Below, piece by piece: positions 1-61,153 of a stretch of DNA of 64,000 nucleotides (position 1 is its first letter; each line of letters begins with the position of its first letter). The stretch spans positions 115,112,397-115,176,396 of the forward strand of contig CM097887.1 in NCBI GenBank assembly GCA_044892525.1, written 5' to 3'. The translations under genes were made by a program, and so were the position numbers. This stretch comes from Schmidtea polychroa (taxonomy: Eukaryota). The notes beneath the pieces were generated by a model that saw nothing but the letters and a program-made list of their open reading frames with translations, was not told where the DNA came from and ran no database searches.

Positions 1-498
1 AGTACCCCAAGCCCAAATAAAGCACCGAGTAAATCAAATGAAACCGAGGAGGTTGAAGAGATTATCCTAGAAGATAGTGACGATGAACCAGGAGAAAGAT
101 CGCCACTATTAGTGAGATGGCCAACGGGAGCCGAGATCTGGACAACAAGTAGACCGTCGACGAGTTATCAACAACCGGAGAAACTAAACATCGAGGGAAT
201 CATCGACAATACGACAGAAACAGAAACAGATGAACAATTTAGGAAACAAAGAGAACCAACAAGAATAACTCCGGAAGGGCAAACCGATAAAATAATAGAC
301 GAATGGAATGAATGGCTGAGAAATAATGACAGTTCATTGCCCAGAACAGATAATGAAAGAAACCCGAATCACGAAAATACAAGAGAAGCCGGAACAACAA
401 TGGAAAAACGGACTAAAGGGAGACCCAAGAAACAAGGGGAAAAACCCGAATTTAAAACTAAGGAACAATTAAAGCAAGAACAAGGACAAGTCAGATAA
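1..498 (+). CDS. C-terminal part of an upstream ORF (acidic/basic low-complexity linker), open from base 1; probably the upstream part of the polyprotein
   Basis: Frame 1 has no stop from position 1 (STPSPNKAPSKSNETEEVEEIILEDSDDEPGERSPLL...) to TAA at 496-498; it overlaps the next frame, which is open from 473. Confidence 0.7.
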   Translation, partial: STPSPNKAPSKSNETEEVEEIILEDSDDEPGERSPLLVRWPTGAEIWTTSRPSTSYQQPEKLNIEGIIDNTTETETDEQFRKQREPTRITPEGQTDKIIDEWNEWLRNNDSSLPRTDNERNPNHENTREAGTTMEKRTKGRPKKQGEKPEFKTKEQLKQEQGQVR

Positions 499-529
499 AA
501 TAGTATGGGATCTAAAGGAAGCCCAACCC

Positions 530-945
530 ACGATTGAAAGAGGAGAAAAGTGGATACGGGAATTAATAAAAGATATGTTAATAATAACGAACCCGCAACT
601 CAGACGTCTATGGCAACGAAAAGTAGCAAGCATGGAAGCTAGACAGCTATGGCACATCGTGTCAGGGATAATCCCAAAGTTAATCAAGGAGAAAACAAAA
701 ACCACTAAAACGGATTGGGATGAAACGAGGAGAGTAATCGAACAACTCACAACGAATGCAAACGATGATGAACACCATCTAGTAGTAATAACCTATTTGA
801 TGTATAATTTGATGGGATTAGCTGCAAGAAAAATACCCAATAAACAATTCGCAAACCACGTAGAAATGACAGTAGCAATCATAGAAAATACTATCGAACC
901 ACATATTATCCGTGCCGGAGGATGGAAGAGACTCATCCAAGCGCC
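530..945 (+). other. Bcl-2-like domain within the polyprotein
   Basis: BH2-like HIIRAGGWKRL (GGW at 917-925); BH1-like hydrophobic helix HLVVITYLMYNL; BH4-like WIRELIKDML in the upstream frame extension; all-helical pattern. Recognised by eye only. Confidence 0.5.
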
Positions 946-3900
946 ACGGAAAAACGAACAGGAAAGATCAATGCAAGTCAGATTGAAAAAGTTGCTGAAT
1001 GAACTAGAATGGGAATTACCAATGAAAGATCCAGCTAGCAGAAAAGCGTCAATAAACTCGTTAATGATGACTATGATGATATGGATGTTATGTATCAGCG
1101 GAGCAACAGGCTTCACGATCTATGATTGCGATAATTCCGTAATGAGGGATAGATACTCACTAAGAGACATCGAGGAATGTAGACAAGCTTCACCAAATAA
1201 ATTAGATGTCGTGAACAAAAAAGTCTCATATCATGTGTATCAGGAATCGGATTTCATCAGGACGCTAGCCAAAGAGTGCGTAGTATCAAAGCGTGTGTTG
1301 GCATACTATTGCGGACAATATTCATATTCAACTCTTATACTACCCGGATTGGATAAAGAAATAGTGCCCATACAAAGTGAGGATTGCAAAGAACTGTTTA
1401 GAACCAGAGCGATGAGGATCCGAGACGGAGTAACAATACACGGGCAAAGTGGAATGATCAAAACAGAAAGCATTTACGTAGCCGGACGCGTAAAATCAAC
1501 TGATGGAACATGTAATGGAGGTACGTATACGATCAGAGGAGAGGCGATATCGGGAGTAGTAGTAATCGAGTCATATACAGTTGAGTTAAAAGAATACGAA
1601 GCACAATTTGACGCCAATAATTATCAAATGAAGACCAACCCAGCATGTAGAGCTACGGAAAACGTATGCAAGACGGGGGTTTCGACCATAATATATGAAG
1701 CTAACACCCAAAAATGCCGACTTCAATTGTTGAAAAGTGCTCTGTTCAACGAAGTAAAAGGGGAAATTTATGAGAACGAGGATGATGAGGACGGAAATGG
1801 AAAAGTGAGAATGCGAAATGGAAAACCAGTACTACCATCGCCCAAAGAAAAAAGGCTCACCACACAAAAAACACCAACAGCACTGATCACAGACGATCCG
1901 GACCTAGGCATGAGATTCATCAGAGGGAAGGAGACCACCAAATGCGATAGTATCGTCTACAAGACCAACTACGCAGGTATCTACATGTCACGGCAGATAA
2001 TAGATAGAGCAGTGGGAAAGATAGCCACAGAGGACGTCAAATTGTACCTATATGCTAATAACAAAATGGATTTTTTATTCCATCGTGGACAAACGACACT
2101 GCAAAAAGTATACTACGATCTTATACAAAACGATTGTTCATTAAATAAGGAGATACTGAAAACAAAACTAGCTATAGCGATAACGCACCCTGATAATACG
2201 ATGCCATCACTCCCATTACCGGATGGACATTTTGGTAGGATGGTGGGAGAAGTGATGTATACATATGCATGTACTAAGACGTTTGCACGAATGCCAGAAA
2301 AACCCACGATACCACCAGGGAAATGTGCAAACGAGTTGGAAATTCGTTATAAAGGGCAAAATCGATTCGTCCAACCAGTTACCAGAATTATGAACCCATT
2401 AGGTTTCTACCCAAATCTCTTTAACTGTTCCAATGCGTACGGACCATTATACGAGAGACCCGATGGGAAATGGATAATGTTACCGGTGAGGGCCACAGTG
2501 GAGGAACCCAAGAAGTTTGGATTAATAGAACTCGCTACGGAGCAAGATTTCAAGCCCATAGATGTATCAAACGGAGGCATGTATTCCGCAGCGGATCTAG
2601 AAACAGCACGGCTAAACATACTTTTCCCAGCCAGACGAGAATCAATATTATCAAACATGGTCACAATAACGGGGGGAACGAACTATCAATCAGGTCCAAA
2701 TTATGAACTACTACTATCACCAGAACATTTCCAACACGCAACGTCAAATATGATGAAGGCAATGTGGGGAAGATTCTTAGTATTCGGACAAATGATGGCA
2801 GGAATATTGGGAATCATACTCATAATTCAAATTGTCAGAGTAATATTGACACAAATGTTAGCCTGTTTCGATATATACAAAAGAGAAAAGAAAGTAAATT
2901 GGAAAATGATAGTAGGGTTTCTACCATTTTTAGCAAAAACCATGGTATTACATCGTCACTCAAAAGATATTCATCGAATAAAGCGATTGATCAAAATATT
3001 AACCAAGATTAAAGGAACCGATGAGGAAATAGGTAGACGATTCCGAAAAACCATGTACGACGAAGCAACGAGAAGACAACTGAAAAAGAACAAGCCAAAA
3101 TTCTTAGACCGATTCAGGAGTCAATCATCTAACAGCGATAGTGACGATGACGACGAAGGGAACCACAAATATCCGTATCCCAGCGGACATCCAAAGGAAA
3201 AGCAAATTGAAACCGCACCGTATTGGGAGAAGGATAAGACAAACACCTGGATAGCCAACGGAAGTTATATACCACCGGACATCGTTGGACAACAAGCAGC
3301 CCTGACCATGACACAAAATATGTATCCACAATTACCCAATCAATCCGGAATGAATTATATGCCGACGAGGAGAACCAGAAGTGTAGATCAAGCGGACGAT
3401 GTACGGACAATAGCAGCAATGAGTTTACCTGGAGGTCCGGCAGTAACAGTCATGATCCAAATCAACGGAAAAGAAACAAATGCTATGATCGACACCGGAG
3501 CTAACGTATCAGCAATAGCAATTAATCAAATTCCCAGCAGATATTGGAAAGATATCGAGTCAACAACAATCCACATCATAGCATGCAGTAAAGAAACAGT
3601 AGACGTGGTCGGAAGATGGTGGACCACCTTAAAATACCAAGATAACGAAATTGAAACGTATTTAGCAGTAATACCAAAACTAAGTGTACCATGCATAATC
3701 GGAACAGATCTAATGCCAGAACTACTAAAAGAAGTAGTAATCGATTTAACAACAATGTGCCTAAAGGATAAAACCGGCAGAATATGCACAATGAATGCGA
3801 TAATCAGATGTCCAGAAAAAATAATCGTACCAGCAAAATCACAGATGATCTGTCAAATAAAAGTAGACACGGGAATGGAAGGGGAAGTTATTTTCGAACC

Positions 3901-6871
3901 AAGTAAATCGTTTGAAAAACGACGAGAATTACCGCTAGCAAGAGAAATAATAACAATAAATCAAGAAGGAATGATACCGATCAACATCACGAATTTCGAA
4001 GAGGAAGACAAAATCATCTATGAGAATGAAAAATTGGGAAAATTGACCCCAATGATGGATATAGAACTACCAAAAGTGACCAACGACACAACCAAAAACG
4101 ACGAATTATGGACAATCGACAGTACATTGTTAACAGCTGCCGAAAAGAGAAAATTGCACCGATTGTTAGTGGAATACAAAGATATATTCGCCATCTCAGA
4201 TTTGGATTTGGGTACATGTGATGTCACCCTACATGCAATTCCACTGATAGATGAAACTCCAATCGCATTAAGACCATACAAACTAGCAGAAATGCAAAAA
4301 GAAATAGCTGAAGCAGAAGTGCAAAAGATGCTAGATGCAAAAGTAATCGAACCAAGTTGCTCACCTTGGCAGTTTCCAGTGGTCATGGTGAAAAAGAAAG
4401 ATGGCACGCAAAGATTCTGTATCGATTATCGAAAATTAAATGCAGTAACAAAGAGGGATACCTATCCATTGCCAGACATTAATGAAATGTTACTCATGTT
4501 GCAGGGGGCAGCATATTTTACTTCTTTAGATTTAAAAAGTGGATACTGGCAGATTAAAGTCAAAGATGAGGACAAAGAGAAGACCGCTTTCACTTTGGGG
4601 CGAGATCTATATCAGTTCAGGAAAATGCCATTCGGACTAACTAACGCACCAGCATCATTTCAAAGGTGTATGAACTTTGTCACTCATGGAATAAAACAGT
4701 GTATGGTATATATTGATGATTTACTAATATATTCAGCGACCTTTGAACAACATCTGGAGGATATCCGAAATGTATTTATTCGATTACGACAATGGAAACT
4801 CAAACTCAAACCTTCCAAATGCGATTGGGCAAAGGAAAAGGTTACGTTTTTAGGACACATAGTGTCAGCCAAAGGAAAAGAGCCAGACCCAAGAAACATC
4901 GAAAAAATAAAAACATGTCCAGCACCAAAAACTGTCACCCAAGTTCAGGAATTTCTCGGACTATGTGGATACTACCGTAAATTTATCAAAAATTATGCCG
5001 GAATTGCAAAACCAATCCAAGAACTGGTAAAGAAAGACATCTCATTCAGTTGGGGAAAAGAACAACAGGAGGCATTCGAGACGTTGAGAGATAAATTGAT
5101 TGAAGCACCAATCCTCGTACATCCGGATTTCAAGAAGCCATTTCTATTGGCAACAGACGCAAGCGGATATGCGGCCGGAGCAATTTTAGTCCAACTGGAT
5201 GACGAGGGAAAAGAGAGAGTAATTGGATATTACAGTCGAACATTCAAAAAGCATGAGAAGAACTATTCGGTAACAGAAAGAGAAGCATTAGCTATAATAC
5301 AAGCCATCAAACACTTCCGATATTTACTATGGGGACATGAGATATGCATAACCACAGATCATCAACCATTGGTGTGGTTAGGGCAACATAAAGAAGCGTC
5401 AAGTAGACTAATGAGATGGGCCATGCAATTACAAGAATACTCCCCATTTATAAAATTCAAAGCAGGAAGAGCAAATGCCAACGCCGATTGTATGTCAAGA
5501 TTTATTTTTCCAGATTTGGTGGATTCGGAAATGCAACGCATATGCTTAATAGTAGCGGAAGATTTGGACTTTTGCCAACTGCGAAAGGACCAACAAGAAG
5601 ACGCAGAATTAAAGCAAATTATCGATTATGTAAAAACAGGAAAAACCGAAGTGTATGCGAAAGACCAGAAATTAAAAGAACATATGGATAAACATCGACA
5701 TCGATACATTATAGATAAAGATTGGTTGCTAATAATGGATGGCGAAAAACGATTAATGTGCATACCGGAAAACAGACGAAAAGAGTTACTAACGCAATAT
5801 CACGATGGAAGATTGGGTGGACACATGTCATCAAAAAAGACTTTAGCAAGAATGAAACAGAAATATTTTTGGCCTGCGCTAACCGAAGACGTAACCGAAT
5901 GGGTGAAAAATTGTCTAACTTGTGCAACCAGGAAGAATACTGGATCGAAATGGAAAGCGCCGTTAACGCCAATGCCAGTACCGATAGAACCAATGACAAT
6001 GATATCAATGGACGTAGTCGGTCCATTACCCGAATCGGATAAAGGAAACGTTTATATTTTGGTAATTACGGATTACCTCACGAAATTCCCAGAGGCATTT
6101 GCTATGCCGGATCAAAAAGCTAAAACAATCGCAAATATCTTGGTAGAAGAAATATGTTGCCGATATGGAACGCCGAAGCAAATATTAACAGATCAAGGCA
6201 CAAATTTCATGAGTGAGATCATGAGCGAGGTGACCAACTACTTCAAAATCGCAAAGTTGAGAACATCACCGTATCACCCTCAAACAAACGGGATGACGGA
6301 AAGATTTAACGGAACACTTATCCAAATGTTGTCGAATTACGTCGACCGTCACCAACGAGATTGGGACGAATATATTAACCTATGTCTTATGGCTTATAGA
6401 ATGTCAATTCACGCATCAACAAAAATGAGCCCATTCAAATTAATGTACGGAAGGGAATGTAACATGCCAATGGACCTAGAATATCAACCACCAATATCGC
6501 AATATATGGAGATACACGATTATGTCACAAAATTCAAAGAAAGAATGCAGGAAATTTGGGAAACCGCGGGACTAAACATCAAATTCTACCAGGAAAGTTA
6601 TAAAGATTTACATGATCGAAAGAAAAACGTGAAGCAACATACCTTGCAGATAGGCGATTGGGTAATGATAGAAACACCAGAACTGATTCCGGGAACCACA
6701 AAAAAGTTACAACGAAACGGAAAAGGGCCATATGAGATCTTATTTGTAGGCGAAACTAACGTAAGAGTGAAATTGGTGAATAATCCGTTCACCAGGCCAA
6801 TATACGTAAATGTAGACGATGTAAACCAATCCCAAAAACAGCCATCAGTCAACCAGAAGGCCGTACGTTAA
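575..6871 (+). CDS. pol: Polyprotein: Bcl-2-like domain, internal signal, class III fusion glycoprotein, TM, tail, aspartic protease, RT, RNase H, integrase
   Basis: PR MIDTGANVSAI (~3484); RT PWQFPVVMVKKKDGTQRFCIDYRKLN, LDLKSGYWQI, MPFGLTNAP, YIDDLL (~4709); RH LATDASG, ITTDHQPL; IN H..H..CLTC, MDVVGP, TDQG, ERFN, GPYEI. The frame is open from 473. Confidence 0.95.
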   Translation: MLIITNPQLRRLWQRKVASMEARQLWHIVSGIIPKLIKEKTKTTKTDWDETRRVIEQLTTNANDDEHHLVVITYLMYNLMGLAARKIPNKQFANHVEMTVAIIENTIEPHIIRAGGWKRLIQAPRKNEQERSMQVRLKKLLNELEWELPMKDPASRKASINSLMMTMMIWMLCISGATGFTIYDCDNSVMRDRYSLRDIEECRQASPNKLDVVNKKVSYHVYQESDFIRTLAKECVVSKRVLAYYCGQYSYSTLILPGLDKEIVPIQSEDCKELFRTRAMRIRDGVTIHGQSGMIKTESIYVAGRVKSTDGTCNGGTYTIRGEAISGVVVIESYTVELKEYEAQFDANNYQMKTNPACRATENVCKTGVSTIIYEANTQKCRLQLLKSALFNEVKGEIYENEDDEDGNGKVRMRNGKPVLPSPKEKRLTTQKTPTALITDDPDLGMRFIRGKETTKCDSIVYKTNYAGIYMSRQIIDRAVGKIATEDVKLYLYANNKMDFLFHRGQTTLQKVYYDLIQNDCSLNKEILKTKLAIAITHPDNTMPSLPLPDGHFGRMVGEVMYTYACTKTFARMPEKPTIPPGKCANELEIRYKGQNRFVQPVTRIMNPLGFYPNLFNCSNAYGPLYERPDGKWIMLPVRATVEEPKKFGLIELATEQDFKPIDVSNGGMYSAADLETARLNILFPARRESILSNMVTITGGTNYQSGPNYELLLSPEHFQHATSNMMKAMWGRFLVFGQMMAGILGIILIIQIVRVILTQMLACFDIYKREKKVNWKMIVGFLPFLAKTMVLHRHSKDIHRIKRLIKILTKIKGTDEEIGRRFRKTMYDEATRRQLKKNKPKFLDRFRSQSSNSDSDDDDEGNHKYPYPSGHPKEKQIETAPYWEKDKTNTWIANGSYIPPDIVGQQAALTMTQNMYPQLPNQSGMNYMPTRRTRSVDQADDVRTIAAMSLPGGPAVTVMIQINGKETNAMIDTGANVSAIAINQIPSRYWKDIESTTIHIIACSKETVDVVGRWWTTLKYQDNEIETYLAVIPKLSVPCIIGTDLMPELLKEVVIDLTTMCLKDKTGRICTMNAIIRCPEKIIVPAKSQMICQIKVDTGMEGEVIFEPSKSFEKRRELPLAREIITINQEGMIPINITNFEEEDKIIYENEKLGKLTPMMDIELPKVTNDTTKNDELWTIDSTLLTAAEKRKLHRLLVEYKDIFAISDLDLGTCDVTLHAIPLIDETPIALRPYKLAEMQKEIAEAEVQKMLDAKVIEPSCSPWQFPVVMVKKKDGTQRFCIDYRKLNAVTKRDTYPLPDINEMLLMLQGAAYFTSLDLKSGYWQIKVKDEDKEKTAFTLGRDLYQFRKMPFGLTNAPASFQRCMNFVTHGIKQCMVYIDDLLIYSATFEQHLEDIRNVFIRLRQWKLKLKPSKCDWAKEKVTFLGHIVSAKGKEPDPRNIEKIKTCPAPKTVTQVQEFLGLCGYYRKFIKNYAGIAKPIQELVKKDISFSWGKEQQEAFETLRDKLIEAPILVHPDFKKPFLLATDASGYAAGAILVQLDDEGKERVIGYYSRTFKKHEKNYSVTEREALAIIQAIKHFRYLLWGHEICITTDHQPLVWLGQHKEASSRLMRWAMQLQEYSPFIKFKAGRANANADCMSRFIFPDLVDSEMQRICLIVAEDLDFCQLRKDQQEDAELKQIIDYVKTGKTEVYAKDQKLKEHMDKHRHRYIIDKDWLLIMDGEKRLMCIPENRRKELLTQYHDGRLGGHMSSKKTLARMKQKYFWPALTEDVTEWVKNCLTCATRKNTGSKWKAPLTPMPVPIEPMTMISMDVVGPLPESDKGNVYILVITDYLTKFPEAFAMPDQKAKTIANILVEEICCRYGTPKQILTDQGTNFMSEIMSEVTNYFKIAKLRTSPYHPQTNGMTERFNGTLIQMLSNYVDRHQRDWDEYINLCLMAYRMSIHASTKMSPFKLMYGRECNMPMDLEYQPPISQYMEIHDYVTKFKERMQEIWETAGLNIKFYQESYKDLHDRKKNVKQHTLQIGDWVMIETPELIPGTTKKLQRNGKGPYEILFVGETNVRVKLVNNPFTRPIYVNVDDVNQSQKQPSVNQKAVR
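1052..2950 (+). other. Env-like class III fusion glycoprotein (chuvirus/Monjiviricetes G, gB-like) within the polyprotein
   Basis: Signal-like INSLMMTMMIWMLCISGATG|FTIYDC. Cys pattern ECVV..YYCG, DCKELF, DGTCNGG, central helix NDCSLNKEILKTKLAIA, GEVMYTYAC, CANELEI..FVQPVTRI, CSN..P.Y..GKW, GMYSAADLE. TM FLVFGQMMAGILGIILIIQIVRVIL at 2774-2848. Confidence 0.85.
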
Positions 6872-6894
6872 CCACACGTTCGCAAACTTACCGA

Positions 6895-9438
6895 ATGAAC
6901 ATGATGCAACAGCTCGCAGAACCAACGACTGGACGATTGGGTATCCAACCATCAGAAGCTGAAAAGATTGTAACGGAGGTAAAGATTAAAATACCCGGAT
7001 GGGCAAAAGATAGACTAGACTTCGAAATATTAGGAGGACTATTGACAATGATCGAAAACTATGCAAACAGAGAAAGAACGCATCCGTTGTTACGAGTAGT
7101 CAAAAGCCAATGGCCGATATTATTTACCGTAACAGATCCTTATGGAGACACACCATTACATAAACTTATGAAAGTAGGCAACAACGAACAAATACTAGAG
7201 ACAATAGAAGCATTTCACGACTGCAATAGATCAACAGAACAAGAAAACAACCAGGGTTACACACCATTAATGATAGCAGCAAACAGAGGCAAAACAAAAG
7301 ACATTATAATCGCATTACTCGACACCGGATCAAAGATAACCACACAAGATCGTAATCAGAAGAACGCGCTGCATCATGCAATTGAAGGGAGAAGTTCCGA
7401 AGCATTCACGACGTTGATGGAACTACTAGCATATGAAGATAATCGAGAAGTCGGAAACATGTATGACGGTTTATTAACCGCAATCAAAGAGAAATTGACA
7501 ACAATTACCGGAATATTGATTACATGGAGAAATCCAATCAAAAATGATTACATGATCGACGTAAACGAAGCATTCACGAGAGGAGAGAACACGCTTATGA
7601 GAGAAGCCATGAAAGGACATCATTTATTCGAAATCCCAAATCAATTAATGGAACGAGGAATAAAATTCACAAACCATAAAGACGAACAGCTATTAAAAAA
7701 GCGAACTGACACATTCGAAAAATCCATATTCCAATTCGTTAACCAAGCACGAAATAAACATTGGGAAACAGTAAGTGTGCTATATATGATGGACACAATG
7801 AACAACATTCGCGAGAATTACTTAGATATTATTCAAACACTTACAGCGGAAGAACGAATCAATAATTCAACCAGTAAGAAAACAAAAATAAAGAAAGGAA
7901 CATCAAAAGAACCAAAGTCGCAAACGAATCAAATTGCAGCAAATAATGTCAGCAAAACGAAACCAAGAAATTTAGATCAAGAAACAATAATACGCAAAGC
8001 GAAAGAAGTATTCTTTGAGGAAATGCTAGAGTTATCAGACGAAATGATATTGGCTAAAATAATAAAGACCGTACACACATACGCAAGGGATCAAACAACA
8101 GAGTTGGATATCGGAAAAATCAAAACCTTCATGCCACGAGCATTTACCATGTTAACCAAGGATCAAAGAACGTCGTTACAACAGGCAATACTAGCAGCAA
8201 AGGAAAACCGAGCAATAACGATAATAAGAATCCTCAGAGATTTGGGTAAGGAAACCAACACGAAAAACGAACAACGCGAAACCGCCATGATGTATGCAGC
8301 TATAACAAAAATACACCCAAAAACACTCCATATACTACATCAATCAGGATCAAGACTGGATGAAAAATCAACCGAAGGGAACTCCACAATGGACTGGGCA
8401 ACCATACAGCCGAACCTAGAAATGATCAGGTTCATATGCAAAAATGCGACAAAGGAAGAAGTTGAAAATATTTGCAAAAACACATCTCATTTTCAGTGGA
8501 ATACGGTACGGGAAAATCTAGAAGCCATGAAATTATTATTAACATGGAGAGTGCCGCAAAGTAATAAATACGCGATTAACGTAAACGAATTTTATGAGAA
8601 CGGTGAAAACACAATGGTCAAAAATACATTAACTAAAGGGGGGACACCTAAGATCATACTAATTGTATTGAATAGAGAAGATCTGAGATTCACGAAAAAC
8701 CCAAACGAACATCAACGAATTGGAAAACACCGCCGTATACAACTGAGAGAACTAGTGAAGGAATGGAATCGGAAAAGACACGCAGCAACCGGGAGAAAAG
8801 AGTTCGAATTCGAGGCTAAACTAGCAAGAAACAGAGTACTAACAGCATACCGAAGATTATTAAACGATATAAATGTCGAGGACGACATTTTAAACGACAG
8901 CGGGGGAGATAAATTCGATGATAATGACGGAAAGGGTCGAAAAGAGGATAAAGAGAAAAGAAAACCGGAAGAGGATAACCCGGAAAACAAAGACCCAGGT
9001 ACGGGAAAGGACGGAAACAACCCGGGAAACAAGACGAAAGAGGAGGAAAAACCGAATAATGGAAAACAGAGGGTATGCCTACCTTTCACCAACAAAGAAA
9101 TAGAAACAAATATGATACTAATGATAATTGTCCTAACCATGATAGAATTAGTAACAGCCCATGGAGAGACGAGAACGTTAAAAGAGACCAAAGAAGCAGA
9201 GAACCACGACAACAAAAAGGAGGAGCTGAAGCCAGAAAAGAAAAAACAAGTACAAGAGCAACAATGGGATCTGAAGGAGGAGTGGGATCTAAAGGAAAGA
9301 TGTATACTGGGAAGATGCATGTCTAAAGCATATCGGAGATTAGTGTTAATGAACGAGGACACAGAACCGATAACGGAAGTGGGAATACAAGAAGCATACC
9401 AACACCGGAACGGGAAGAGAATAACGAAAGTTAAATGA
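6895..9438 (+). CDS. Ankyrin-repeat protein with two duplicated ANK modules; probably the continuation of the polyprotein (frame open from 6784)
   Basis: GDTPLHKL, GYTPLMIAA, KNALHHAI, RETAMMYAA, GNSTMDWA. Internal duplication: LITWRNP..IDVNE..GENT..FTNHKDE versus LLTWRVP..INVNE..GENT..FTKNPNE. Confidence 0.9.
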   Translation: MNMMQQLAEPTTGRLGIQPSEAEKIVTEVKIKIPGWAKDRLDFEILGGLLTMIENYANRERTHPLLRVVKSQWPILFTVTDPYGDTPLHKLMKVGNNEQILETIEAFHDCNRSTEQENNQGYTPLMIAANRGKTKDIIIALLDTGSKITTQDRNQKNALHHAIEGRSSEAFTTLMELLAYEDNREVGNMYDGLLTAIKEKLTTITGILITWRNPIKNDYMIDVNEAFTRGENTLMREAMKGHHLFEIPNQLMERGIKFTNHKDEQLLKKRTDTFEKSIFQFVNQARNKHWETVSVLYMMDTMNNIRENYLDIIQTLTAEERINNSTSKKTKIKKGTSKEPKSQTNQIAANNVSKTKPRNLDQETIIRKAKEVFFEEMLELSDEMILAKIIKTVHTYARDQTTELDIGKIKTFMPRAFTMLTKDQRTSLQQAILAAKENRAITIIRILRDLGKETNTKNEQRETAMMYAAITKIHPKTLHILHQSGSRLDEKSTEGNSTMDWATIQPNLEMIRFICKNATKEEVENICKNTSHFQWNTVRENLEAMKLLLTWRVPQSNKYAINVNEFYENGENTMVKNTLTKGGTPKIILIVLNREDLRFTKNPNEHQRIGKHRRIQLRELVKEWNRKRHAATGRKEFEFEAKLARNRVLTAYRRLLNDINVEDDILNDSGGDKFDDNDGKGRKEDKEKRKPEEDNPENKDPGTGKDGNNPGNKTKEEEKPNNGKQRVCLPFTNKEIETNMILMIIVLTMIELVTAHGETRTLKETKEAENHDNKKEELKPEKKKQVQEQQWDLKEEWDLKERCILGRCMSKAYRRLVLMNEDTEPITEVGIQEAYQHRNGKRITKVK

Positions 9439-10113
9439 AAAGAGGTGCACCTAGATAAAGGAGGCGAAGTAGTGATAACACAACTCCAACCAAGGAAAGA
9501 ACACAAAGTATGTATTTCAAGGCTAGGACCAGGCGAAGACTGTTTACAATATGTAACACAGCAACAACAGCCAAAGGAATACACGGTCTGTATCGTGAGA
9601 AAAAGACCAGAAAAGGAATGCCGACGATATCCTGGGAAAAGGGGGAAGAAAAGAAAGATCAATGACGGAGAAGACGAGGAAGGAAAACGCCAGAGGGTCG
9701 ATGAGAAAAACCAAGATAATTACGTATCAGAAGAAGAAATGGAAAAAATACAAAAAATGGCAAAAGAAGGGATCAATGAGGAAATAACAAGAATACGAGG
9801 GTTGAAGAAAGGTAAAAGTCAAACAGAGAAAGAGGGAAATGCAGAAACAGCGAGTACAGTGATAAACAATGGAAACTCAGAGATCATCAGCGTAAAACAG
9901 ATGATATGGATCAGCGGAATAATAATGACCGGAGCGTTCATAACTATTACGGGGGGGACGATAAAAATAATCCGAGATAAACAACAGCGTAATAAACTCG
10001 AAATGATCAGAGCCAGAAACTTTCAACATCAAGTAAAAAGGCCCAGTAAAATGAGTCAGGAACAGTGGATGGAGGCCTGGAAGACGCAGTGCCCTCCAAA
10101 TCCACAAATATAG
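9439..10113 (+). CDS. In-frame continuation of the ANK ORF after a single TGA; Cys-containing segment and C-terminal TM
   Basis: Same frame as 6895, separated only by TGA 9436-9438; no ATG at the annotated start (GTG); TM IWISGIIMTGAFITITGGTI at 9904-9963; homolog at 61216-61860 on the minus strand. Confidence 0.75.
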   Translation, partial: KEVHLDKGGEVVITQLQPRKEHKVCISRLGPGEDCLQYVTQQQQPKEYTVCIVRKRPEKECRRYPGKRGKKRKINDGEDEEGKRQRVDEKNQDNYVSEEEMEKIQKMAKEGINEEITRIRGLKKGKSQTEKEGNAETASTVINNGNSEIISVKQMIWISGIIMTGAFITITGGTIKIIRDKQQRNKLEMIRARNFQHQVKRPSKMSQEQWMEAWKTQCPPNPQI

Positions 10114-10638: not shown

Positions 10639-10704
10639 TCAAGGCCTAAAATTAAATGTAAATAACTGTAAATAAATATCGAACCTGTATCGATAAGAAA
10701 TTAT

Positions 10705-12111
10705 ATGTGTATAATTGTAGACATGGATAAACAAAAGAGAGAAGAGTTCAACGAAATCATCGAGTTAGTCAGAGATTCCGCAGCAATCAGAATACACAAA
10801 CATGTCATGTGTGGAATATGTGAAAAATTATTAAAAGAACCCCATCAAACCCAATGCGGATGCAGAGTGTGCAAAGAATGTATAAAAGAAACAATAAAAA
10901 ACCGACCACAGTGGTGCCCGATATGTAAAGAGACACTGATATCAAGTTTAGAAGATACTAATGAAGACAAAGCCGCGGTAAAGGACATGTTGAACACTAA
11001 TCTGGGATGTAAAAATACCCCATGTGAATGGAAAGGATCAATATGGAAAGTGAAACAACATCTGGTGGAATGTATGTACAAAGTCAGCCAGTGTGAACGA
11101 TGCCAGAAATTAATTCAAGCTAACGAAGAAAAGGAACATCAAAGTCAGTGTGAAGAAAGGTTGGAAAGATGCGAATATTGCGGAGAAGTAGACACATGGA
11201 AAAATCTCACCATCAAACATCACAATGTCCAAGAGGAAAAGGTATGTGCAGAATTCTGTGGTGAATGCCCGAACGGATGCAACAAAGGGGGAGTAATAAA
11301 ATTAGCCCAGCATCTAAAAGAATGCGAAAGGAAAAGAATGATATGCGTACTAGGCAAATGGGGGTGTCAGAAATTACTACACCGAGAAGACTTGCCACAC
11401 CACTTAACCGAAAATGTAATAACTCACGCAGAGATGTGGTCAACTGCACTACAAGACAGTGAAGAGAAAGTGCGACAAATGGAGATAGAAATAACCTCAC
11501 TGAAAGCATTAGTAAAAGAACTGCTAGAAGAACGAGAGGCTTTTGAACAAGCTCGAGCAAACATAAAAATGCAAATTAATCGAATGGAAATCAGTAACGA
11601 TCAGGCCAAAGTACTGCATCAGAAAATAAATGAAATCAATCTAAATGAGGTAATACCAACTGCACCGTATATATGGAAAATAACGGGAGTAAAAGAAAGA
11701 GTACGAAAAGCAAAAACCGGAGAAGATACAAGACTAACAAGCCCCGCATTCCATTCCTGGAAAAACGGATACAAAATGAAAATGAAGGTATATCCCAACG
11801 GGAACGGGACCGGATTAGATACGCATTTTTCGATCTTCTTTATGCTCTGCAAAGGGGAGTATGATGAAATATTAGAATGGCCATTCCAGGCAAAAATCGA
11901 TATTACACTAATGAACAACCAAAGTATACACGAGCAAAGCTTCAAAACAACGGGGAATCAAATAGCTTACCAGAGGCCCCTCAACGAAGAAGGAGCAGCA
12001 ACAGGAGCACCGACGTTCATTTTACAACAAAGGGTAGAAGATATGGCGAGAAATGATACCGTATATATCAAGATGACGGTTCGGAGGGAAGGAAAGAGTA
12101 GAACCGAGTAA
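10705..12111 (+). CDS. TRAF: Intronless full-length TRAF-family protein (RING, TRAF zinc fingers, coiled coil, MATH), TRAF2/3/5-like
   Basis: RING CGIC..QCGCRVCKEC..CPIC; zinc fingers CKNTPCEWKG, CERC, CEYC, CPNGC; MATH YIWKI..SPAF..GYKM..YPNGNGTG..THFSIFF..EWPF. Confidence 0.95.
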   Translation: MCIIVDMDKQKREEFNEIIELVRDSAAIRIHKHVMCGICEKLLKEPHQTQCGCRVCKECIKETIKNRPQWCPICKETLISSLEDTNEDKAAVKDMLNTNLGCKNTPCEWKGSIWKVKQHLVECMYKVSQCERCQKLIQANEEKEHQSQCEERLERCEYCGEVDTWKNLTIKHHNVQEEKVCAEFCGECPNGCNKGGVIKLAQHLKECERKRMICVLGKWGCQKLLHREDLPHHLTENVITHAEMWSTALQDSEEKVRQMEIEITSLKALVKELLEEREAFEQARANIKMQINRMEISNDQAKVLHQKINEINLNEVIPTAPYIWKITGVKERVRKAKTGEDTRLTSPAFHSWKNGYKMKMKVYPNGNGTGLDTHFSIFFMLCKGEYDEILEWPFQAKIDITLMNNQSIHEQSFKTTGNQIAYQRPLNEEGAATGAPTFILQQRVEDMARNDTVYIKMTVRREGKSRTE

Positions 12112-14890: not shown

Positions 14891-15499
14891 TTGTAGCAGC
14901 AAACCCCAACCAGAACCATCAGAGTGACCGAACAATGCCAGAACTGAACTAAAAACATTATGTTGTGAAAAACTTTGTTGTGTATATAAACCATCACCAT
15001 AAGTGATGCCTGCTTGGTCTTGATTTGACCTATATCTTATTAATAAAATTCTATTGATGTTTATAATTTTGTTAATCACTATGTTATCTTTTTATGAATG
15101 TGTTTATCTTTTTATGAGAGAGTAAGAGTAGCTCAAGTATGTAATTGCGGGACGCAATTTTATCGGGTCCCCGAGTGATTTGTTGGGCTGAGTCGAAAGC
15201 ATAATCGTCAAATTTAGGACAGATAAGACGCGAACAAATAAAATAAGACCACAAATTGCTAAAATAAATAAATCAAGAGACAAAAGAAACAATAACGTAA
15301 AATATTAAGATTAAAACAAAAAATAAAAAATAGAAAAATTAAAATAAGGTAATAAGATAAGGAATAAAATGACGAAAAATGCAACAAATAATGAGGAATT
15401 TAAGAAACAAATAAAAAATATATTAAAATAAAGAAAAATAAGGAAAAACAACCAAAGAAATAAGAAAAACAAATTAATTTAAAAGTTAAAGCGGTACTC

Positions 15500-15590
15500 A
15501 ATTTTGATTGGTCCGCATAAACAAAAAATTCCTATATAAGCAAACAGCAAATTCAATATAGTTACTGTTTAACAAACACCATTACAGGTA
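15500..15590 (+). promoter_or_regulatory. Putative Pol II promoter (LTR or internal) with first exon and splice donor
   Basis: ATTGG (reverse CCAAT) at ~15507, TATATAAG at 15533-15540, TAGTT Inr-like site ~28 nt downstream, CAG|GTAAGC donor at 15588. Confidence 0.5.
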
Positions 15591-17680
15591 AGCTCATAAT
15601 TTAAAAACTTACTGTTTAACAAACACCATTACAGATCAACACTCAACCATTACAGACGATCACCGACGTACAACCTAAACGACTATCAGGGACAATTAGA
15701 TTTTTAACTCAGTACAATAACCGAATTCAGCTTTTCGACTCAGCTTTTCGAGATCACAGATCGATAAAGAATAAAGTAAGGATGTATTCTTATTATGAAT
15801 TCGAGTAAATGTTTCTCATGGAAGTTAATAGTAATAATGTTTATTATCACAATTTTAATAAAATTTTAATGTTCTCTCCATTTGGTCTCATATTTTAATA
15901 ATCAAATAGTTTCAGTAATGAAATTTAAAACCTTTTATGATAGATAACTATGCATGATGATTTCGATTTTTATGGAATTTATATGAAAATTATGGTTGAG
16001 TAACGTGGAGTTGAGGAGACCTGTACCATGGTGTGAGGAGCCTTCGGGATCTCAGCCGGTGGGTACAGACTTCTTCAATCACGCAGCTGACGTGGGCCGG
16101 AAAGTGGGGGCTTCCTCACGGGTCCGTCGCTGAGGGAATTAAAATGTTGCAAGAATTAGCTGACAATAACATAGAATACCATTCGGATTGGAAGATGAGG
16201 ACGATCTTAAAATCCATGACTGAGGTGGCTACAAACGTTTATTTTTCAAAACCCATCATTCTTAGCTGTTACATCTTGAATTCTTTACCTAATACCCGTA
16301 ATCAGTCTGAATCGCCTAAGTGTGCCAATCGACATTCCATCTTCTGAGTACCAAACCCATTTCTGTTGAAATGCACGTCAATTTCCGTCTGACCTGTAGA
16401 AACTGAGTACCAACCCATTCGTCGACGCTATACAATCACATGAGAAGTATAGATGAAATTTATTGAACACAATTTTTTATTAAGAAAATGTATTACGAAA
16501 CTGTTTTATTTTTAACCAAATTATTTCGAAGTGTTCTGAAAATTACACTCACAGTAGGATAAACTCCCTTCAGTAAAGGACACCTCCGATTGACCTTGTT
16601 AAATTGCAGATTTTTCGAATAAGTCGAAGGAAATGTCCACGAAATAAAGTTATCCAAGTAGAAAACACAATTAACTGCACATCGCGGGGAACAAATCCAA
16701 CATTAGCGTTTGATGAGAGAGCAACCTAGATGACATATTGATTCCACGAATTGATTCGACCCAGTGGTGTATTGCGATCATCTGCGAACGATAATTCCGA
16801 TAATGAGCAAACATACGAGATAAATCACACGCACTAACACACTAGTACTTACTCACATATGCGACATGCAGTATTTTCCCAGTCAGCTACAAGTATTGAG
16901 AACCGAAATTAAAACACGCACAGACAACAAGGCTGGCTCGGATAGATAGCAGGCCGCCTGTCTCATGCTTCCATTATCTGGCATGACGAACTATTTTTCA
17001 TGAGATTGATCTTATTACAGGTGTTTCCCGACATATAGCTAATTTCATCGTAGATTAAAATTTTAACTTGCAGAATGGTAATTCCGAACATTAATAATAG
17101 ATAACGGCCAGGTGATTGGTGCATATTCCAAATAATTTGGTATTAAACGGGGACCCAGCAGCTATTGAGTGGAGATTAATTTTGCCTGCGCATCCGCTTG
17201 CCGAGGTGGGAATTCTGAGTTATGTCCTGGGGGAATAATGCGTTGGTTAAGGGGGAAATCGGAAGGCGTTAACAATAAAATTTTGTTTTCTGCGTTTGGT
17301 CTATTTCCAAAGATATTATTTGAAGGAATTATTAGTTATCGGCTCAATTTCGTTGTCCATTTTGTGTACAAGGAGGTTGGGCATCCCCGCATCTAATTAA
17401 TTACGAATTTGTTTTTGTTGTTTCTCCATTACACCAAGGGAAAGAGGGTCACGGCTTACAACTCGACCGGTAGATGACATTCGAATTTAATAATAATAAC
17501 TCAGAGATTTTCTTCACCCATTAGCATAAATCCCTTCCTCTTAATATATTAGGACCACATCAAAATTAATGTATAGCTTGTAGGAAAATTCATAGATGAT
17601 TAGGCCACCAGGCTGGTTTAAATAGACATAGCGAATCTTGTATTTTATCCTTATTGTTTCTTTCATTCTAGCCATTGAGA

Positions 17681-18430
17681 ATGTTACCAAGCTCGAAGTC
17701 GTCTCTCAAACCCTGCTTCTCATGCTCAGATAAGAATTCTATAATCAGGGATTTGCAAGCCCAGATCGGTCGATACAAGAAAGCGATCGACCATCTGGAA
17801 GGTACATGGTTCAGCCCAGTACAAATGAAGGAGGTACAAAAGAAATTGTACCGAAGCGAGCACTGTCGCGACGCCTTAATAAGCGAGAGTAGGGCCCAAC
17901 GCAGTCTTATCAAAGAGCAGTCCGAGGCTCTACACAAGGTCTACGTACAAGCGGCAGCAACTAGAAAGATAGTGAGTATACCTATCAATGGAGCGGACGA
18001 CCTTTTCCCCGTCCATCATGAACTTCCTTCCAATTCGTCATCTTCGGCTAAGAAGCCCTGCCGGGAATGCGTGGAAGCCGATCTCTCTCCCAGGTCAACC
18101 ATAGTGTCTCCCATTGGAGCCCAGAAAGGGTTATCATCGACCGCGTCTTCCTCTGTCGTACTATCAAACACCCTGATTGTTCCAAAACCCAAGCGTCGAC
18201 AGTTGTCCAGAGCTGAGCGTAAAAAGCGTCAGCGCGAACGAGCAATCGCCAAACAAAGTGGACTATCTGCCGAGCTCTCCAGTACTTCGAACGATCCCCC
18301 TGTAACGATCGATTTAACCGTAGGGATCCCAGGGCGAATCATCTCCGCCGCTGGTGTAACTTGGGAGGAGAATGCCTCCGAATTCTTCGAGCTGGAGGAG
18401 CTGTTAGCCGACGCAGAATGGGAAAAGTAA
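17681..18430 (+). CDS. Basic/Ser-rich protein with coiled coil, NLS-like cluster and acidic C-terminus; probably a spliced accessory gene
   Basis: ATG at 17681 lies 9 nt after a polypyrimidine-AG acceptor (17641-17671); PKPKRRQLSRAERKKRQR; AATAAA at 18567. Confidence 0.6.
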   Translation: MLPSSKSSLKPCFSCSDKNSIIRDLQAQIGRYKKAIDHLEGTWFSPVQMKEVQKKLYRSEHCRDALISESRAQRSLIKEQSEALHKVYVQAAATRKIVSIPINGADDLFPVHHELPSNSSSSAKKPCRECVEADLSPRSTIVSPIGAQKGLSSTASSSVVLSNTLIVPKPKRRQLSRAERKKRQRERAIAKQSGLSAELSSTSNDPPVTIDLTVGIPGRIISAAGVTWEENASEFFELEELLADAEWEK

Positions 18431-19569
18431 AGATCTCAATCCAATGCAACTACATCGATCATGTTTAGTAAATTGAACGATTCTGACTTATATGTTCTCG
18501 TAAACCGTCTTCCCTTGATTTATATTAGTCCTGTAGTTTTAACTGTATAGCGTACTATGATAGTAGAATAAAGAAATTTTCGTCATTTCTTATTGTCAGT
18601 TTTTGTTTGATTAGCCATTATAAAGGTTCAGAGTAGGTTTTACAACCCAAGCGCAAACTTTAGTTCGAAAAGCATTAGACAATCTGTATATAACTCGGTG
18701 TCAGGTAGGGAAGGAAATGGTGGAGTGATCAGACGTAAGCCCTTCCATCGGCAGTCAGAAAAAGGAAGTCGAGGCCTCAGTAAGGAGTAGTCCTAAGGTA
18801 GGGGCTCACCTGCTTACTGGTGTCTCGCCGGCATAGCACATTTCCAACGTGGAGCAATTCACGGGTGCTATGTTGGAGTACAAGTTGTGCGGGGTCTTGC
18901 TCCGGATTGACGTAAGCACACTTAGCGTAAATGAATGGACACTCATCTCCTAGACAGGTGCGTAAATGAGTTAAGGTCAATCAAGCACTACCCCAGCACA
19001 AACATGATTTAAAAGATTGACACCATCATGGAAAACAAGGGTCAAAGATTACCCAGGTAAAAAGTCCAAAAATTCAAAAGTCTTAGAAATTTTTCTGCAC
19101 ATTTGAACTTTTATTTTTTAAAACTTTTAAAAACTTAAATGAGTTTTTTCACTGTGTTTTAATACATTAATCAATATAAGAAGAGAATGATATATTAATA
19201 ATATATGTATTGTCATTTAAAATAAAAAAAAATATATTCAAACCGTGTAAAGTTATATATAGTTGAAAAGAGCAAACGAATATCTACAGATGACATATTA
19301 TTCAACATATGATCATATAAATTGAACAAGATATTAAAATTAAAATTTTTAAAAATTTCAAAAATAAAGTTTATAAAAAAATAAAGTTTTGATATGTTTT
19401 AGGGTATCACAAAACGAATATTTTTCATTAAGGAACAATATCTTTAAAATGACTTAAAACATGTTTACATGTCTTTGTTAGTCATGTATTAGTTAATCAT
19501 ACATTTAAACGTCTTTATTATTCGTGCACTTCTATTGCACATGTCTTTGTTAATCATACATTGAAACTC

Positions 19570-20770: not shown

Positions 20771-21763
20771 CAGTATTACCATTTCATTTGAATATCTATC
20801 ATGTGATGGCGAAAATTACCATATTTAACTAACTTTAACCTCAAATTACATAAAATTTTGTAAAAGTTACCCTAACAGCAATTTATTTATAACAAATTTA
20901 AACAAATTATCTAATATTTTGTTAAATATTTCCTTAAAATGTATTTCTAACTAAATTAATTTTCTGAATGTAATTGCAAATACTAATTGGGTATAAAAAT
21001 GATCATCTTTTTACTAAATTATCTAAGATTTTGCTAAAAATGATTTAAAAAGTCCATTTATGTTCAGATATATGCTTATATTGTCTATAGACTTGCTTAG
21101 ATACAACAAAATGACAAAGATAACCAATATTCATAAAATAGTCAAACGTTTCTCAAAATGTGTATGTTGTACCAAAGAAATTTGATAAAAGTTACTAATA
21201 TATAAAGATTTGTTATCCTATGTGACCATGTATTTCTCACAAAATGTTACATAAATATTTATACCCGACGATTATCTATTTCTCATTAAATTACCTAAGA
21301 AATGTTACTCTATATGACCATTTATTTCGATCTAATATACGTAAGCGCTCGAATTGGTTAGAGGATAGCCAAATAATTGTTTCTATAATAACTAAATAGC
21401 ATGGAATTCTAACAAAAGATATACAATTGACTGAAATTACTCTAAATGATAAAGTATTTCTCCCAAAATTTCCAAGCTAAAATGGATCTGAAAGAATGAA
21501 GATTTAGTAAAATTAATAATTTAACACAAAATGGAAGATAATATGTTATATATATATATATATATATATTGAAATTAATCTAAATTTTTTAATATTGATT
21601 TTAATGGCTATATTTGTCATACAAAAGCTATATAAAATTTAATTTTTATTTATTAAAATTTAATTTGAGTTGATTTCTTAGAATTTTTGGGAATTACTAA
21701 AATGTTATGGAAATTGTTATATAATAATCGTTTGACTTAAACTAGGGTTTAGAGACATTCATC

Positions 21764-22450
21764 ATGAAAATTTTACTTATTATATTTTTCTCATACACTA
21801 GTTTGTTAGACGCGTGTGTGCGTTCAAATATTAGAATTGAACTATCAAAATCCAAAGTTGTGGTTCCTTTGGCATCAATATTCCAATTCAATGCAACATT
21901 TCCATTGGAAGAGTTGACTGACTATAAATTCAACATTTCGTTTACAAAATCCTCAAAAGTAAAAGAACTAGATCGCGTCATCATATTTCTAGCTTTCAAT
22001 AAAGAAGTTAAATCGCTGATATTTCTATCAAAGCTGTCTTACAAGGAAATTAACTATGGCACTCCACAATTGTTTTCCATTTCAAATTATACATTTCAAT
22101 CTAGGTTGGTAAATGGAAAATTGAGATTTCGAGAAATCGCTACCAATAAACAATTCAATGTGATGGCATTTACCTATTCTCATAATGAAATTGATGGTCT
22201 CTACAATCAATTTGATGAAAAATGGGCAAGCTTTAATCAAACTGTAATCTATAGGTCGACCCTGCTAATAAATAAGCAGCCTATTCTCAAATCACTTGTG
22301 GATATTCTAATGGAACATTTATGGATTTTGATTATTATCAGCATTCCAGCAATTATTTTAATTGGAGTTTTTCTCTTTCAATCCGTGGAAATATGTTTAA
22401 AGCGCAAAGAAAAGAAACCACAAGAAAAATTGACTGAGTTCTCCCTTTAA
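21764..22450 (+). CDS. Single-exon type I membrane protein, uncharacterised family (paralog A)
   Basis: Signal-like N-terminus, C-terminal TM LWILIIISIPAIILIGVFLF, basic tail; paralogs at 44295 and 47438. Confidence 0.8.
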   Translation: MKILLIIFFSYTSLLDACVRSNIRIELSKSKVVVPLASIFQFNATFPLEELTDYKFNISFTKSSKVKELDRVIIFLAFNKEVKSLIFLSKLSYKEINYGTPQLFSISNYTFQSRLVNGKLRFREIATNKQFNVMAFTYSHNEIDGLYNQFDEKWASFNQTVIYRSTLLINKQPILKSLVDILMEHLWILIIISIPAIILIGVFLFQSVEICLKRKEKKPQEKLTEFSL

Positions 22451-44294: not shown

Positions 44295-44987
44295 TTAAAA
44301 GAAAAACTCAGTCAATATTTCCCGTGGTTTCTTTTCTTTGCGCTTTAAACATATTTCCACGGATTGAAAGAGAAAAACTCCAATTAAAATAATTGCTGCC
44401 AAACTGAAAATGATCATAATCCACAAATGTTCCATTAAAATATCCAAAAATGATTTGAGAATAGGCTGCTTATTTATTAGCAGGGTCGACCTATAGATTA
44501 CAGTTTGATTTAAACTTGCCCATTTTTCATCAAATTGATTGTAGAGACCATCAATTTCATTATGAGAATAGGTAAATGCCATCACATTGAATTGTTTATT
44601 GGTAGCGATTTCTCGAAATCTCAATTTTCCATTTATCGACATAGATTGAAATGTATAATTTGAAATGGAAAACAATTGTGGAGTGCCATAGTTAATTTCC
44701 TTGTAAGACAGCTTTGATAGAAATATCAGCGATTTAACTTCTTTATTGAAAGCTAGAAATATGATGACGCGATCTAGTTCTTTTACTTTTGAGGATTTTG
44801 TAAACGAAATGTTGAATTTATAGTCAGTCAACTCTTCCAATGGAAATGTCGCATTGAATTGGAATCTTGGTGCCAAAGGAAGGGGTACAACTGGATCGTA
44901 CTTGGAGTATTTGAATTTAAAATTCGTTCTCTGACAAGCATTTAATAGTGCAAAAAGTGATAATAATATCAATAATTCAATTTTCAT
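44295..44987 (-). CDS. Type I membrane protein paralog B (inverted duplicate of 21764..22450)
   Basis: Core nearly identical to paralog A; ATG of MKIELL at 44987; ~100 bp of 3' flank also shared. Confidence 0.8.
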   Translation of the reverse strand: MKIELLILLSLFALLNACQRTNFKFKYSKYDPVVPLPLAPRFQFNATFPLEELTDYKFNISFTKSSKVKELDRVIIFLAFNKEVKSLIFLSKLSYKEINYGTPQLFSISNYTFQSMSINGKLRFREIATNKQFNVMAFTYSHNEIDGLYNQFDEKWASLNQTVIYRSTLLINKQPILKSFLDILMEHLWIMIIFSLAAIILIGVFLFQSVEICLKRKEKKPREILTEFFF

Positions 44988-47437: not shown

Positions 47438-48064
47438 ATGAATGTCTTTTTTAATGTTTTATGTATTATTAGCGGCATATGTGTAGAGAATCAAGGGAAA
47501 CAGAAAAATCACAACCTAACATCGTTTCATATATCGTTCCCAAACACCAAATTCAATGATTATTCCAATACCATTTTTAAGATTTCTCTAAATTCGGACT
47601 TAATGCCATATTTTGATAAATTAGTTATTATTTTTCTAATTCATGATTCATGGAAAGTATATAAATCTAGCATAATTTATTCACAGAAGAAAGTGAATAG
47701 ATATATTAATGATTATTTTACCTTGGAAGATCTTCAAACTAATAATCAAAGTTTATATGGAATTTTGCGTTTTAAAGAATTATCAAATGAAACTGATTTC
47801 ACAGTATTGTCAATTCCTCATTTTAAATATACAAATGAAAGTATTTTCATTAAAAATTGGAAAACTTTCAATAATTGGATAGTTTATGAGAAGCATTTAA
47901 TTCTTGACCCATTGACTTTGGCAGATAAATTTTTGTATATTTCTAAAGTATCTATAACTTTTCAGATCATTTTTTGTATTTTGATCGCTGGAATTTTGTC
48001 AATTGTAACAGTTAAATTATTAGATGTTTTCTTTATTATTTTGAAATTTATAAGTAAATTATGA
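47438..48064 (+). CDS. Distant paralog C of the same membrane-protein family
   Basis: FHISFP..DY..FKISL..DKLVIIFL versus FNATFP..DY..FNISF..DRVIIFL; GILRFKEL versus GKLRFREI; WKTFN..VY versus WASFN..IY; C-terminal TM. Confidence 0.7.
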   Translation: MNVFFNVLCIISGICVENQGKQKNHNLTSFHISFPNTKFNDYSNTIFKISLNSDLMPYFDKLVIIFLIHDSWKVYKSSIIYSQKKVNRYINDYFTLEDLQTNNQSLYGILRFKELSNETDFTVLSIPHFKYTNESIFIKNWKTFNNWIVYEKHLILDPLTLADKFLYISKVSITFQIIFCILIAGILSIVTVKLLDVFFIILKFISKL

Positions 48065-60983: not shown

Positions 60984-61153
60984 NNNNNNNNNNNNNNNNN
61001 NNNNNNNNNNNNNNNNNNNNNNNNNNNNNNNNNNNNNNNNNNNNNNNNNNNNNNNNNNNNNNNNNNNNNNNNNNNNNNNNNNNNNNNNNNNNNNNNNNNN
61101 NNNNNNNNNNNNNNNNNNNNNNNNNNNNNNNNNNNNNNNNNNNNNNNNNNNNN
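60984..61153. other. Assembly gap (N run)
   Basis: Ns in the sequence. Confidence 1.

Follow-up and report, generated by a model that had tools for sequence, protein, structure and literature searches.

The Burro elements (GYPSM1) are giant gypsy-like long terminal repeat (LTR) retrotransposons of planarians (Jurka 2007 and Grohme et al. 2018, as described in PMC6431247). The account of them in that paper credits Grohme et al. (2018) with a BCL2-like motif in Burro-2, -3 and -4, places env in frame between BCL2 and the protease (PR), and takes the apoptosis-related cargo to suggest that the elements meddle with host systems. Burro elements are expressed in live differentiated cells upon failed PIWI silencing (PMC8532177), which raises the question of how such cells survive. 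The viral Bcl-2 proteins treated in one review come from DNA viruses (PMC11209288). In flaviviruses one helix, anchor C, is both the capsid anchor and the signal of the glycoprotein (PMC7601889). Here we describe a 64-kb stretch of the Schmidtea polychroa genome (the window; contig CM097887.1, positions 115,112,397 to 115,176,396), which carries part of a Burro-type LTR element that is 29.6 kb long and present in many copies. In the polyprotein of this element, a domain that almost certainly has a Bcl-2 fold, judging from modelling, is followed by a hydrophobic helix that very probably acts as the signal peptide of the envelope glycoprotein (Env). By geometry this helix would be the only possible membrane anchor of the domain.

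An earlier note on this stretch had called an anti-apoptotic gene in an LTR retroelement highly unusual. As cargo it is not new, a BCL2-like motif beside env being already in print in the Burro account (PMC6431247). What was known is the domain, as a label; what is added here is the predicted fold, the occurrence of the domain in eight lineages, the missing Bcl-2 homology (BH) motif BH1 and the signal helix that the domain would borrow. PMC6431247 uses neither 'signal peptide' nor 'anchor', and the idea of a shared-helix anchor was not found in the literature searched; Grohme et al. (2018) is known to us second-hand, and its text or supplements may bear on this.

The element was judged against the published description of Burro anatomy, which it fits: it is about 30 kb long, with long LTRs, a single open reading frame (ORF) near 4,800 residues and env between BCL2 and PR. 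Each LTR measures 3,819 bp, the 5' and 3' copies being 99.8% identical; the 5' LTR lies upstream of the window. The genome was searched for copies and 150 of 985 candidates were scored, all of them 93–100% identical to the query, and in many the element is one frame of 4,732 codons. The order in an intact copy is Gag, long coiled and acidic stretches, a ubiquitin-like domain, the Bcl-2-like domain, the hydrophobic helix, Env, Pol, ankyrin repeats and a tail. The Bcl-2-like domain is therefore the middle of a polyprotein of about 4,700 residues and not a stand-alone gene. The window copy is interrupted just upstream of the domain (stop at 496–498) and twice downstream. Of 30 fetched copies, 27 have no stop in at least 43 codons of this upstream frame, and 19 have none in the whole 499-codon flank. 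The motifs likened to BH4, BH1 and BH2 in the earlier note, and the hydrophobic helix after them, are real and share a frame of 2,132 codons (473–6871) with Env, PR, reverse transcriptase (RT), RNase H (RH) and integrase (IN). The features of this part of the window are as follows.

527–949, plus strand: domain with a predicted Bcl-2 fold; predicted helices at about 545–589, 599–613, 632–691, 716–754, 767–826, 839–913 and 920–940 (core model of 521–967).
557–580, plus strand: BH4-position motif.
755–826, plus strand: turn at the BH1 position, with the central hydrophobic helix; the window's family (A) has lost all four NWGR residues.
905–925, plus strand: BH2-like motif ending in GGW, without the first Trp, which most other lineages retain.
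926–1039, plus strand: linker of about 38 residues, partly helical in a low-confidence model; its length differs among lineages.
1040–1111, plus strand: predicted internal signal peptide of Env, with a basic region (1040–1051), a hydrophobic region (1052–1099) and small residues (1100–1111).
1112, plus strand: conserved Env start.

The fold was assessed with a core model of nt 521–967, made from an alignment of 24 retroelement sequences and no host sequence (predicted local distance difference test, pLDDT, 76.9; predicted template modelling score, pTM, 0.76). The model shows a helical bundle around a central hydrophobic helix. When it was compared with 48,161 chains, the top 36 of the 50 matches listed were of the Bcl-2 fold, with Z falling from 14.0 to 5.9, if the poxviral proteins among them are counted as Bcl-2-fold, which we take them to be; the first unrelated match has a Z of 5.8. 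The best match is Bfl-1 (Z 14.0, root-mean-square deviation (rmsd) 2.9 Å, 138 aligned, model residues 3–143). Foldseek gave TM values of 0.64–0.68 to Bcl-xL (best E 3.4e-3, prob 1.00), and all the rows shown were of the Bcl-2 family.

Taken by itself, the domain sequence of the window matches the Pfam Bcl-2 family weakly (PF00452; 14.5 bits, E 0.052), below the gathering cut-off of 31.4 bits. A phmmer search of the PDB returned 0 matches, the ESM Atlas gave no usable match and two large protein searches gave one match each. Six other retroelement domains score 15.5–30.1 bits against PF00452, three family-B copies pass the cut-off in the genome search (32.2–33.3 bits), and 21 of 24 retroelement domain members match at E 0.1. 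Additionally, a profile from four other lineages, with family A excluded, finds the window domain at E 3.8e-11 and nothing else under E 1 in the window. Two retroelement-only profiles place Bcl-xL first in the PDB (E 1.6e-4 and E 9.2e-5), and Bcl-2 family members account for 60/60 and 58/60 of the rows shown, with two designed proteins in the second. Family A against B, C, D and L141 gives 96.1% by hhalign, and the combined retroelement profile against host-type Bcl-2 genes of the same genome gives 94.0%. Taken together, the profile comparisons show Bcl-2 family homology across BH1 to BH2. A Pfam match to Ribosomal_L17 (E 0.011–0.017, 2 of 24 members) was discarded as chance.

Several results weigh against this fold assignment. 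A first model, of domain, linker and helix together, had a pLDDT of only 50, its Foldseek match had an E of 0.3 and an rmsd of 10 Å, and its wide fold search listed no Bcl-2 row; we ascribe this failure to what was probably too uncertain a model and rely on the core model instead. The fold-search tool warns about helical bundles at around the best Z of 14, AlphaFold may be recognising the Bcl-2 family from training, and family A alone against host Bcl-2 profiles gives only 16.6%.

Eight lineages have a Bcl-2-like domain, linker, hydrophobic helix and Env: A, B, C, D, P0002, L141, L144 and L148. Querying the genome with the Bcl-2 and Env families, and also with two proteins from outside it, brought out B, C, D, L144 and L148, and two records from elsewhere, P0002 and L141, add two more; a metagenome scan with the alignment gave 3 loci from 181 pattern matches, and one of them, L143, is not long enough to include the region. 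The frames of families B and C are 3,053 and 3,334 codons, and the domains of the other lineages are 15–28% identical to that of the window. GGW is present in all 62 copies of four sets (30/30, 12/12, 10/10 and 10/10), of which the second and third (22 copies) were picked by queries without GGW, and it is also kept in the eight diverged lineages. The earlier note had tied its Bcl-2 claim to a predicted bundle and to conservation of GGW among copies, and the claim holds on both counts.

Between two family-A subfamilies the domain protein is 93% identical, 66 of 93 synonymous sites differ and the ratio of non-synonymous to synonymous substitution (dN/dS) is 0.02. The linkers flanking the domain are 84–85% identical and likewise constrained (post-domain linker dN/dS 0.02). 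In family B, dN/dS is 0.10 for the domain and 0.4 for the linker. The whole polyprotein is under similar purifying selection (dN/dS 0.01–0.07), so the low ratio does not set the domain apart, which tells against giving it special weight. By these ratios the Bcl-2-like domain is maintained by selection, as is the whole polyprotein.

The helix after the linker has the anatomy of a signal peptide, with basic, hydrophobic and small-residue regions at the start of a glycoprotein. The signal-peptidase cut site was placed by alignment together with the -1/-3 rule, part of which is given in PMC7601889. With a cut three residues before a conserved YDC, the -1 residue is small in all seven tabulated lineages and the -3 residue is small or neutral in six of the seven; 2–5 basic residues precede the helix in 6/7. 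The helix aligns to positions 4–21 of the glycoprotein model PF24664. No free-standing relatives of Env were found in our searches, and the start of the Pfam model and L142 are the only comparisons. In L142 one frame holds Gag, the same helix, Env and Pol, and no Bcl-2 domain is detected there by Pfam or by the retroelement profiles. Because L142 has the helix without the domain and the helix aligns to PF24664, it most likely belongs to Env, and the Bcl-2-like domain would borrow it. The earlier note had proposed that the tail anchor of the domain doubles as the Env signal peptide. The geometry for this stands in eight lineages; the ownership is altered, as the helix looks like Env's own.

In the window copy the best 13-residue hydrophobic window begins 44 residues after GGW, in line with the roughly 45 given in the earlier note. 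Across the six lineages covered by this measurement the distance is 44 (A), 52 (B), 24 (C), 38 (D), 40 (P0002) and 26 residues (L141, read with X at a stop). A Bcl-2 gene borne by a Maverick element in the same genome has a hydrophobic tail about 26 residues after GGW and a stop 43 residues after it, so C and L141 have the spacing of a native anchor. We also observed a deleted family-B copy (L082:2799–7817) that fuses the Bcl-2 linker in frame to the last transmembrane segment, with Env and Pol skipped; this is one copy.

An RT tree of six rows places L142 outside the families that bear Bcl-2 (support 85/87), and ten retroelement domains form one side of a domain tree of 17 rows (support 86/92), though neither tree is firmly supported. 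The simplest reading would be a single gain of a host-type Bcl-2 ahead of a pre-existing signal peptide. An Env tree gave no resolution and had long branches.

These observations suggest a mechanism, which we regard as evenly poised: a Bcl-2-fold domain in a Burro-type polyprotein, tethered to the endoplasmic reticulum (ER), may damp host death or stress signalling by a non-classical route. Its starting point is the single frame of Gag, ubiquitin-like domain, Bcl-2-like domain, hydrophobic helix, Env and PR-RT-RH-IN. The domain is predicted to fold as a Bcl-2 bundle. The helix would insert at the ER with its N-terminal side in the cytosol while Env enters the lumen; insertion at the ER rather than at mitochondria is expected because Env needs the lumen. 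Signal peptidase would cut three residues before the conserved YDC, and the cytosolic piece would then end in the helix, which is the topology of a tail anchor. The protease of the element would trim the piece upstream. A Met-rich motif of four residues recurs at the borders between domains (6 hits vs 0.3 in shuffles in an intact family-A copy, G000:C1:39.17–39.19 Mb), and these motifs are likely to be protease sites. The last of them before the Bcl-2 domain stands at residue 1,164 of the 4,732, and in family A there is no strict motif between BH2 and the helix (a loose pattern matches once, inside the helix), so the product would be a piece of about 570 residues with the ubiquitin-like domain, an acidic stretch and Bcl-2. 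The anchored piece is thus predicted to be larger than the Bcl-2 domain alone, and on balance we expect it to stay anchored. As to its history, a host-type Bcl-2 would have been gained once, before a signal peptide that was already present. The step of which we are least sure is that the domain, with the TRAF-like cargo of the element, keeps expressing cells alive or quiet, not mainly via BH1–BH3 contact.

A number of points speak against this mechanism. The support is computational throughout, and the signal peptide was read from alignment. The family-A helix is the weakest, with a mean hydropathy of 1.66 over 17 residues in the window copy and below 1.5 in an intact copy, and the spacing in A and B (44–52 residues) is longer than in the sole native anchor measured. 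The pattern of the protease motif was chosen after inspection of the sites. The RT and domain trees are both under the level at which support is starred, and the RT tree is rooted on a single outgroup. Integrase is followed by another signal-like helix that has no Bcl-2 ahead of it, so anchoring of an upstream piece may be a by-product of polyprotein topology. Finally, the polar stub may be clipped by signal peptide peptidase, as in the core protein of hepatitis C virus (HCV). The earlier note's description of the domain as anchored like a viral Bcl-2 does not stand as worded: the membrane would be that of the ER and not of mitochondria, and on the HCV precedent (PMC7601889) the anchor may not last.

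The non-classical route has to be weighed against a classical one, in which the anchored domain is a viral-type pro-survival Bcl-2 that captures the BH3 helices of Bak/Bax-like or BH3-only proteins and blocks apoptosis. We consider this unlikely. The top structural matches are pro-survival proteins, often in BH3-bound forms (Bfl-1, A179L and Bcl-xL), with Bax and Bok within about 2 Z units, and this fits the classical function. The BH1 Arg of pro-survival proteins forms a pair with the BH3 Asp; orf virus Bcl-2 retains the BH1 Gly and Arg, and the tanapox and sheeppox proteins use another Arg (PMC7719400). Certain poxviral proteins bind BH3 although no BH motif can be recognised in them, or do so through a substitute Arg (PMC11209288, PMC7719400), and Arg or Lys is found at the BH1 Arg position in 5/8 lineages. 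However, the BH1 Trp and the BH1 Gly are absent from all eight lineages (0/8 each), A, C and D also lack the basic residue, and the pro-survival signature, NWGR or its Gly and Arg, is not found. Classic BH3 capture is doubtful because family A has lost all of NWGR, and co-translational insertion at the ER would keep the domain off mitochondria. The host-type Bcl-2 genes of the same genome are also variable at the BH1 Gly, so loss of BH1 is no proof of a closed groove. The BH3 consensus includes a Gly-Asp core. Helix 2 shows no such core in any of the lineages, and this speaks against a Bax-like killer. We lean towards a host-signalling role for the domain.

A structural role is less probable still. 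By analogy with viral assembly, the Bcl-2 fold could be a matrix-like adaptor, with the helix tying the Gag-side precursor to the Env membrane during assembly. The domain invariably sits in one frame with Gag before it and Env after it, all of the Gag side would stay anchored by the helix until protease cleavage, flavivirus anchor C has an assembly role (PMC7601889), and the BH1 signature is lost, all of which suit such a role. L142, however, has the same Gag-signal-Env layout without the domain, so assembly there is independent of it, and the element carries other signalling cargo (the TRAF-like ORF here, and a BIR in the published account, PMC6431247). Release of a soluble or nuclear domain, through signal peptide peptidase cutting the short polar stub after signal peptidase, is the most improbable: HCV core is released in this way (PMC7601889), the family-A helix is short and Met-rich with polar residues, and an AT-hook-like basic motif lies 30–60 residues upstream of the domain in A, B, P0001 and L141 (the linkers are otherwise unalignable), but family A has no strict protease-like motif between BH2 and the helix, the helices of B, C and D are long and strongly hydrophobic (hydropathy 2.4–2.8), and the basic motif was not seen upstream of the domain in C, D, L144 or L148.

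Should the shared helix work as proposed, a captured host gene would be wired into the polyprotein at no cost, a death-regulator fold would be tied to envelope synthesis at the ER, and there would be a direct test for the guess, made in the Burro account, that these elements meddle with host apoptosis (PMC6431247). A bolder form of the ER-tether proposal, which we hold only tentatively and think doubtful, is that an env-bearing retroelement clade took up a Bcl-2 a single time, did away with that protein's own tail and joined the protein to the Env signal peptide; each Env translocation would then plant at the ER a Bcl-2 fold that blocks death or ER stress via a surface other than the BH1 groove. 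If true, these would be the first retroelements with an ER-based survival switch coupled one-to-one to envelope synthesis.

The remaining features of the element in the window are as follows.

1–498, plus strand: end of the upstream part of the polyprotein, an acidic linker and then a short AT-hook-like basic motif; copy-specific stop at 496–498, other copies being open here.
About 410–435 (approximate, read off the sequence), plus strand: AT-hook-like basic motif.
1112–2848, plus strand: Monjiviricetes-type fusion glycoprotein (Env), ectodomain and then a transmembrane helix at 2765–2848 (Pfam PF24664, E 6e-72).
3401–6871, plus strand: protease, reverse transcriptase, RNase H and integrase, in the same frame as Env.
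6784–10113, plus strand: remainder of the polyprotein, in two frames in the window copy; ankyrin repeats, second signal-like helix and final transmembrane helix.
10672–12111, plus strand: TRAF-like ORF of the same element, with RING, zinc fingers and MATH; the same ORF is present in two other copies.
15181–18998, plus strand: 3' LTR, 3,819 bp.

In every family examined, integrase is followed by a further signal-like helix, then a putative ectodomain and, last, a transmembrane helix (window 6784–10113; B, C and L142). This layout would take the polyprotein across the membrane no fewer than four times and give it a second putative surface protein, for which there is no Pfam match above the cut-off. 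Upstream of the window, at about 6.0–6.6 kb (L031–L032), there is a 196-codon ORF between the 5' LTR and gag. It ends in a Cys/His pattern resembling an IAP-type RING and would suit the published BIR cargo. On the minus strand, positions 59200–61700 of the window hold a decayed, more distant Burro-like relative with TRAF-like remnants and the last transmembrane segment. Three further ORFs of the window (21746–22450, 44295–45029 and 47435–48064; 209–244 codons) have an N-terminal hydrophobic stretch and a C-terminal transmembrane-like helix, and the first two are near copies of each other.

Other Bcl-2-like genes were seen in the same genome. Multi-copy ones lie in Maverick/Polinton elements (L070, L093–L095, L101–L102 and L105–L106), and one type of these is interrupted by a short intron-like stretch and has a native hydrophobic tail at its end. 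At G000:C4:89.9–90.8 Mb (L041–L047) there is a cluster of seven near-identical, apparently single-exon Bcl-2-like genes with the BH1 signature intact.

In comparison with known Bcl-2-fold proteins, the retroelement domain has the same predicted helical bundle (Z 11.8–14.0 for the first four), the BH2 GGW and a hydrophobic helix C-terminal to BH2. It differs in being embedded in a polyprotein, in the loss of the BH1 Trp and Gly, in having no visible BH3 Gly-Asp core, and in an anchor that would arise by signal-peptidase cleavage at the ER. The poxviral proteins A46, A52, B14 and N1 are Bcl-2-fold signalling inhibitors. Like them, the domain has a Bcl-2 fold without the BH1 signature and possible non-apoptotic targets; unlike them it keeps BH2, and their scores against the core model are lower (Z 6.3–8.8).

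The likeness to the described Burro elements is close: about 30 kb, long LTRs, one ORF of about 4,800 residues, Gag, ubiquitin-like and BCL2-like domains, a mononegaviral-type env in frame, PR, a dUTPase-like domain, RT, RH, IN, ankyrin repeats and MATH/TRAF cargo. The MATH/TRAF cargo here is, in contrast, a separate downstream ORF. The Burro account in PMC6431247 is without a fold test and does not mention the families of 3,000–3,300 residues or the two outside records that share the arrangement. Lastly, as in flavivirus anchor C and HCV core-E1, the cytosolic protein upstream would be held to the membrane at its C terminus by the internal signal sequence of a glycoprotein. There, in the systems described in PMC7601889, the upstream protein is a capsid, and its anchor is removed by the viral protease or by signal peptide peptidase; here it would be a Bcl-2 fold.

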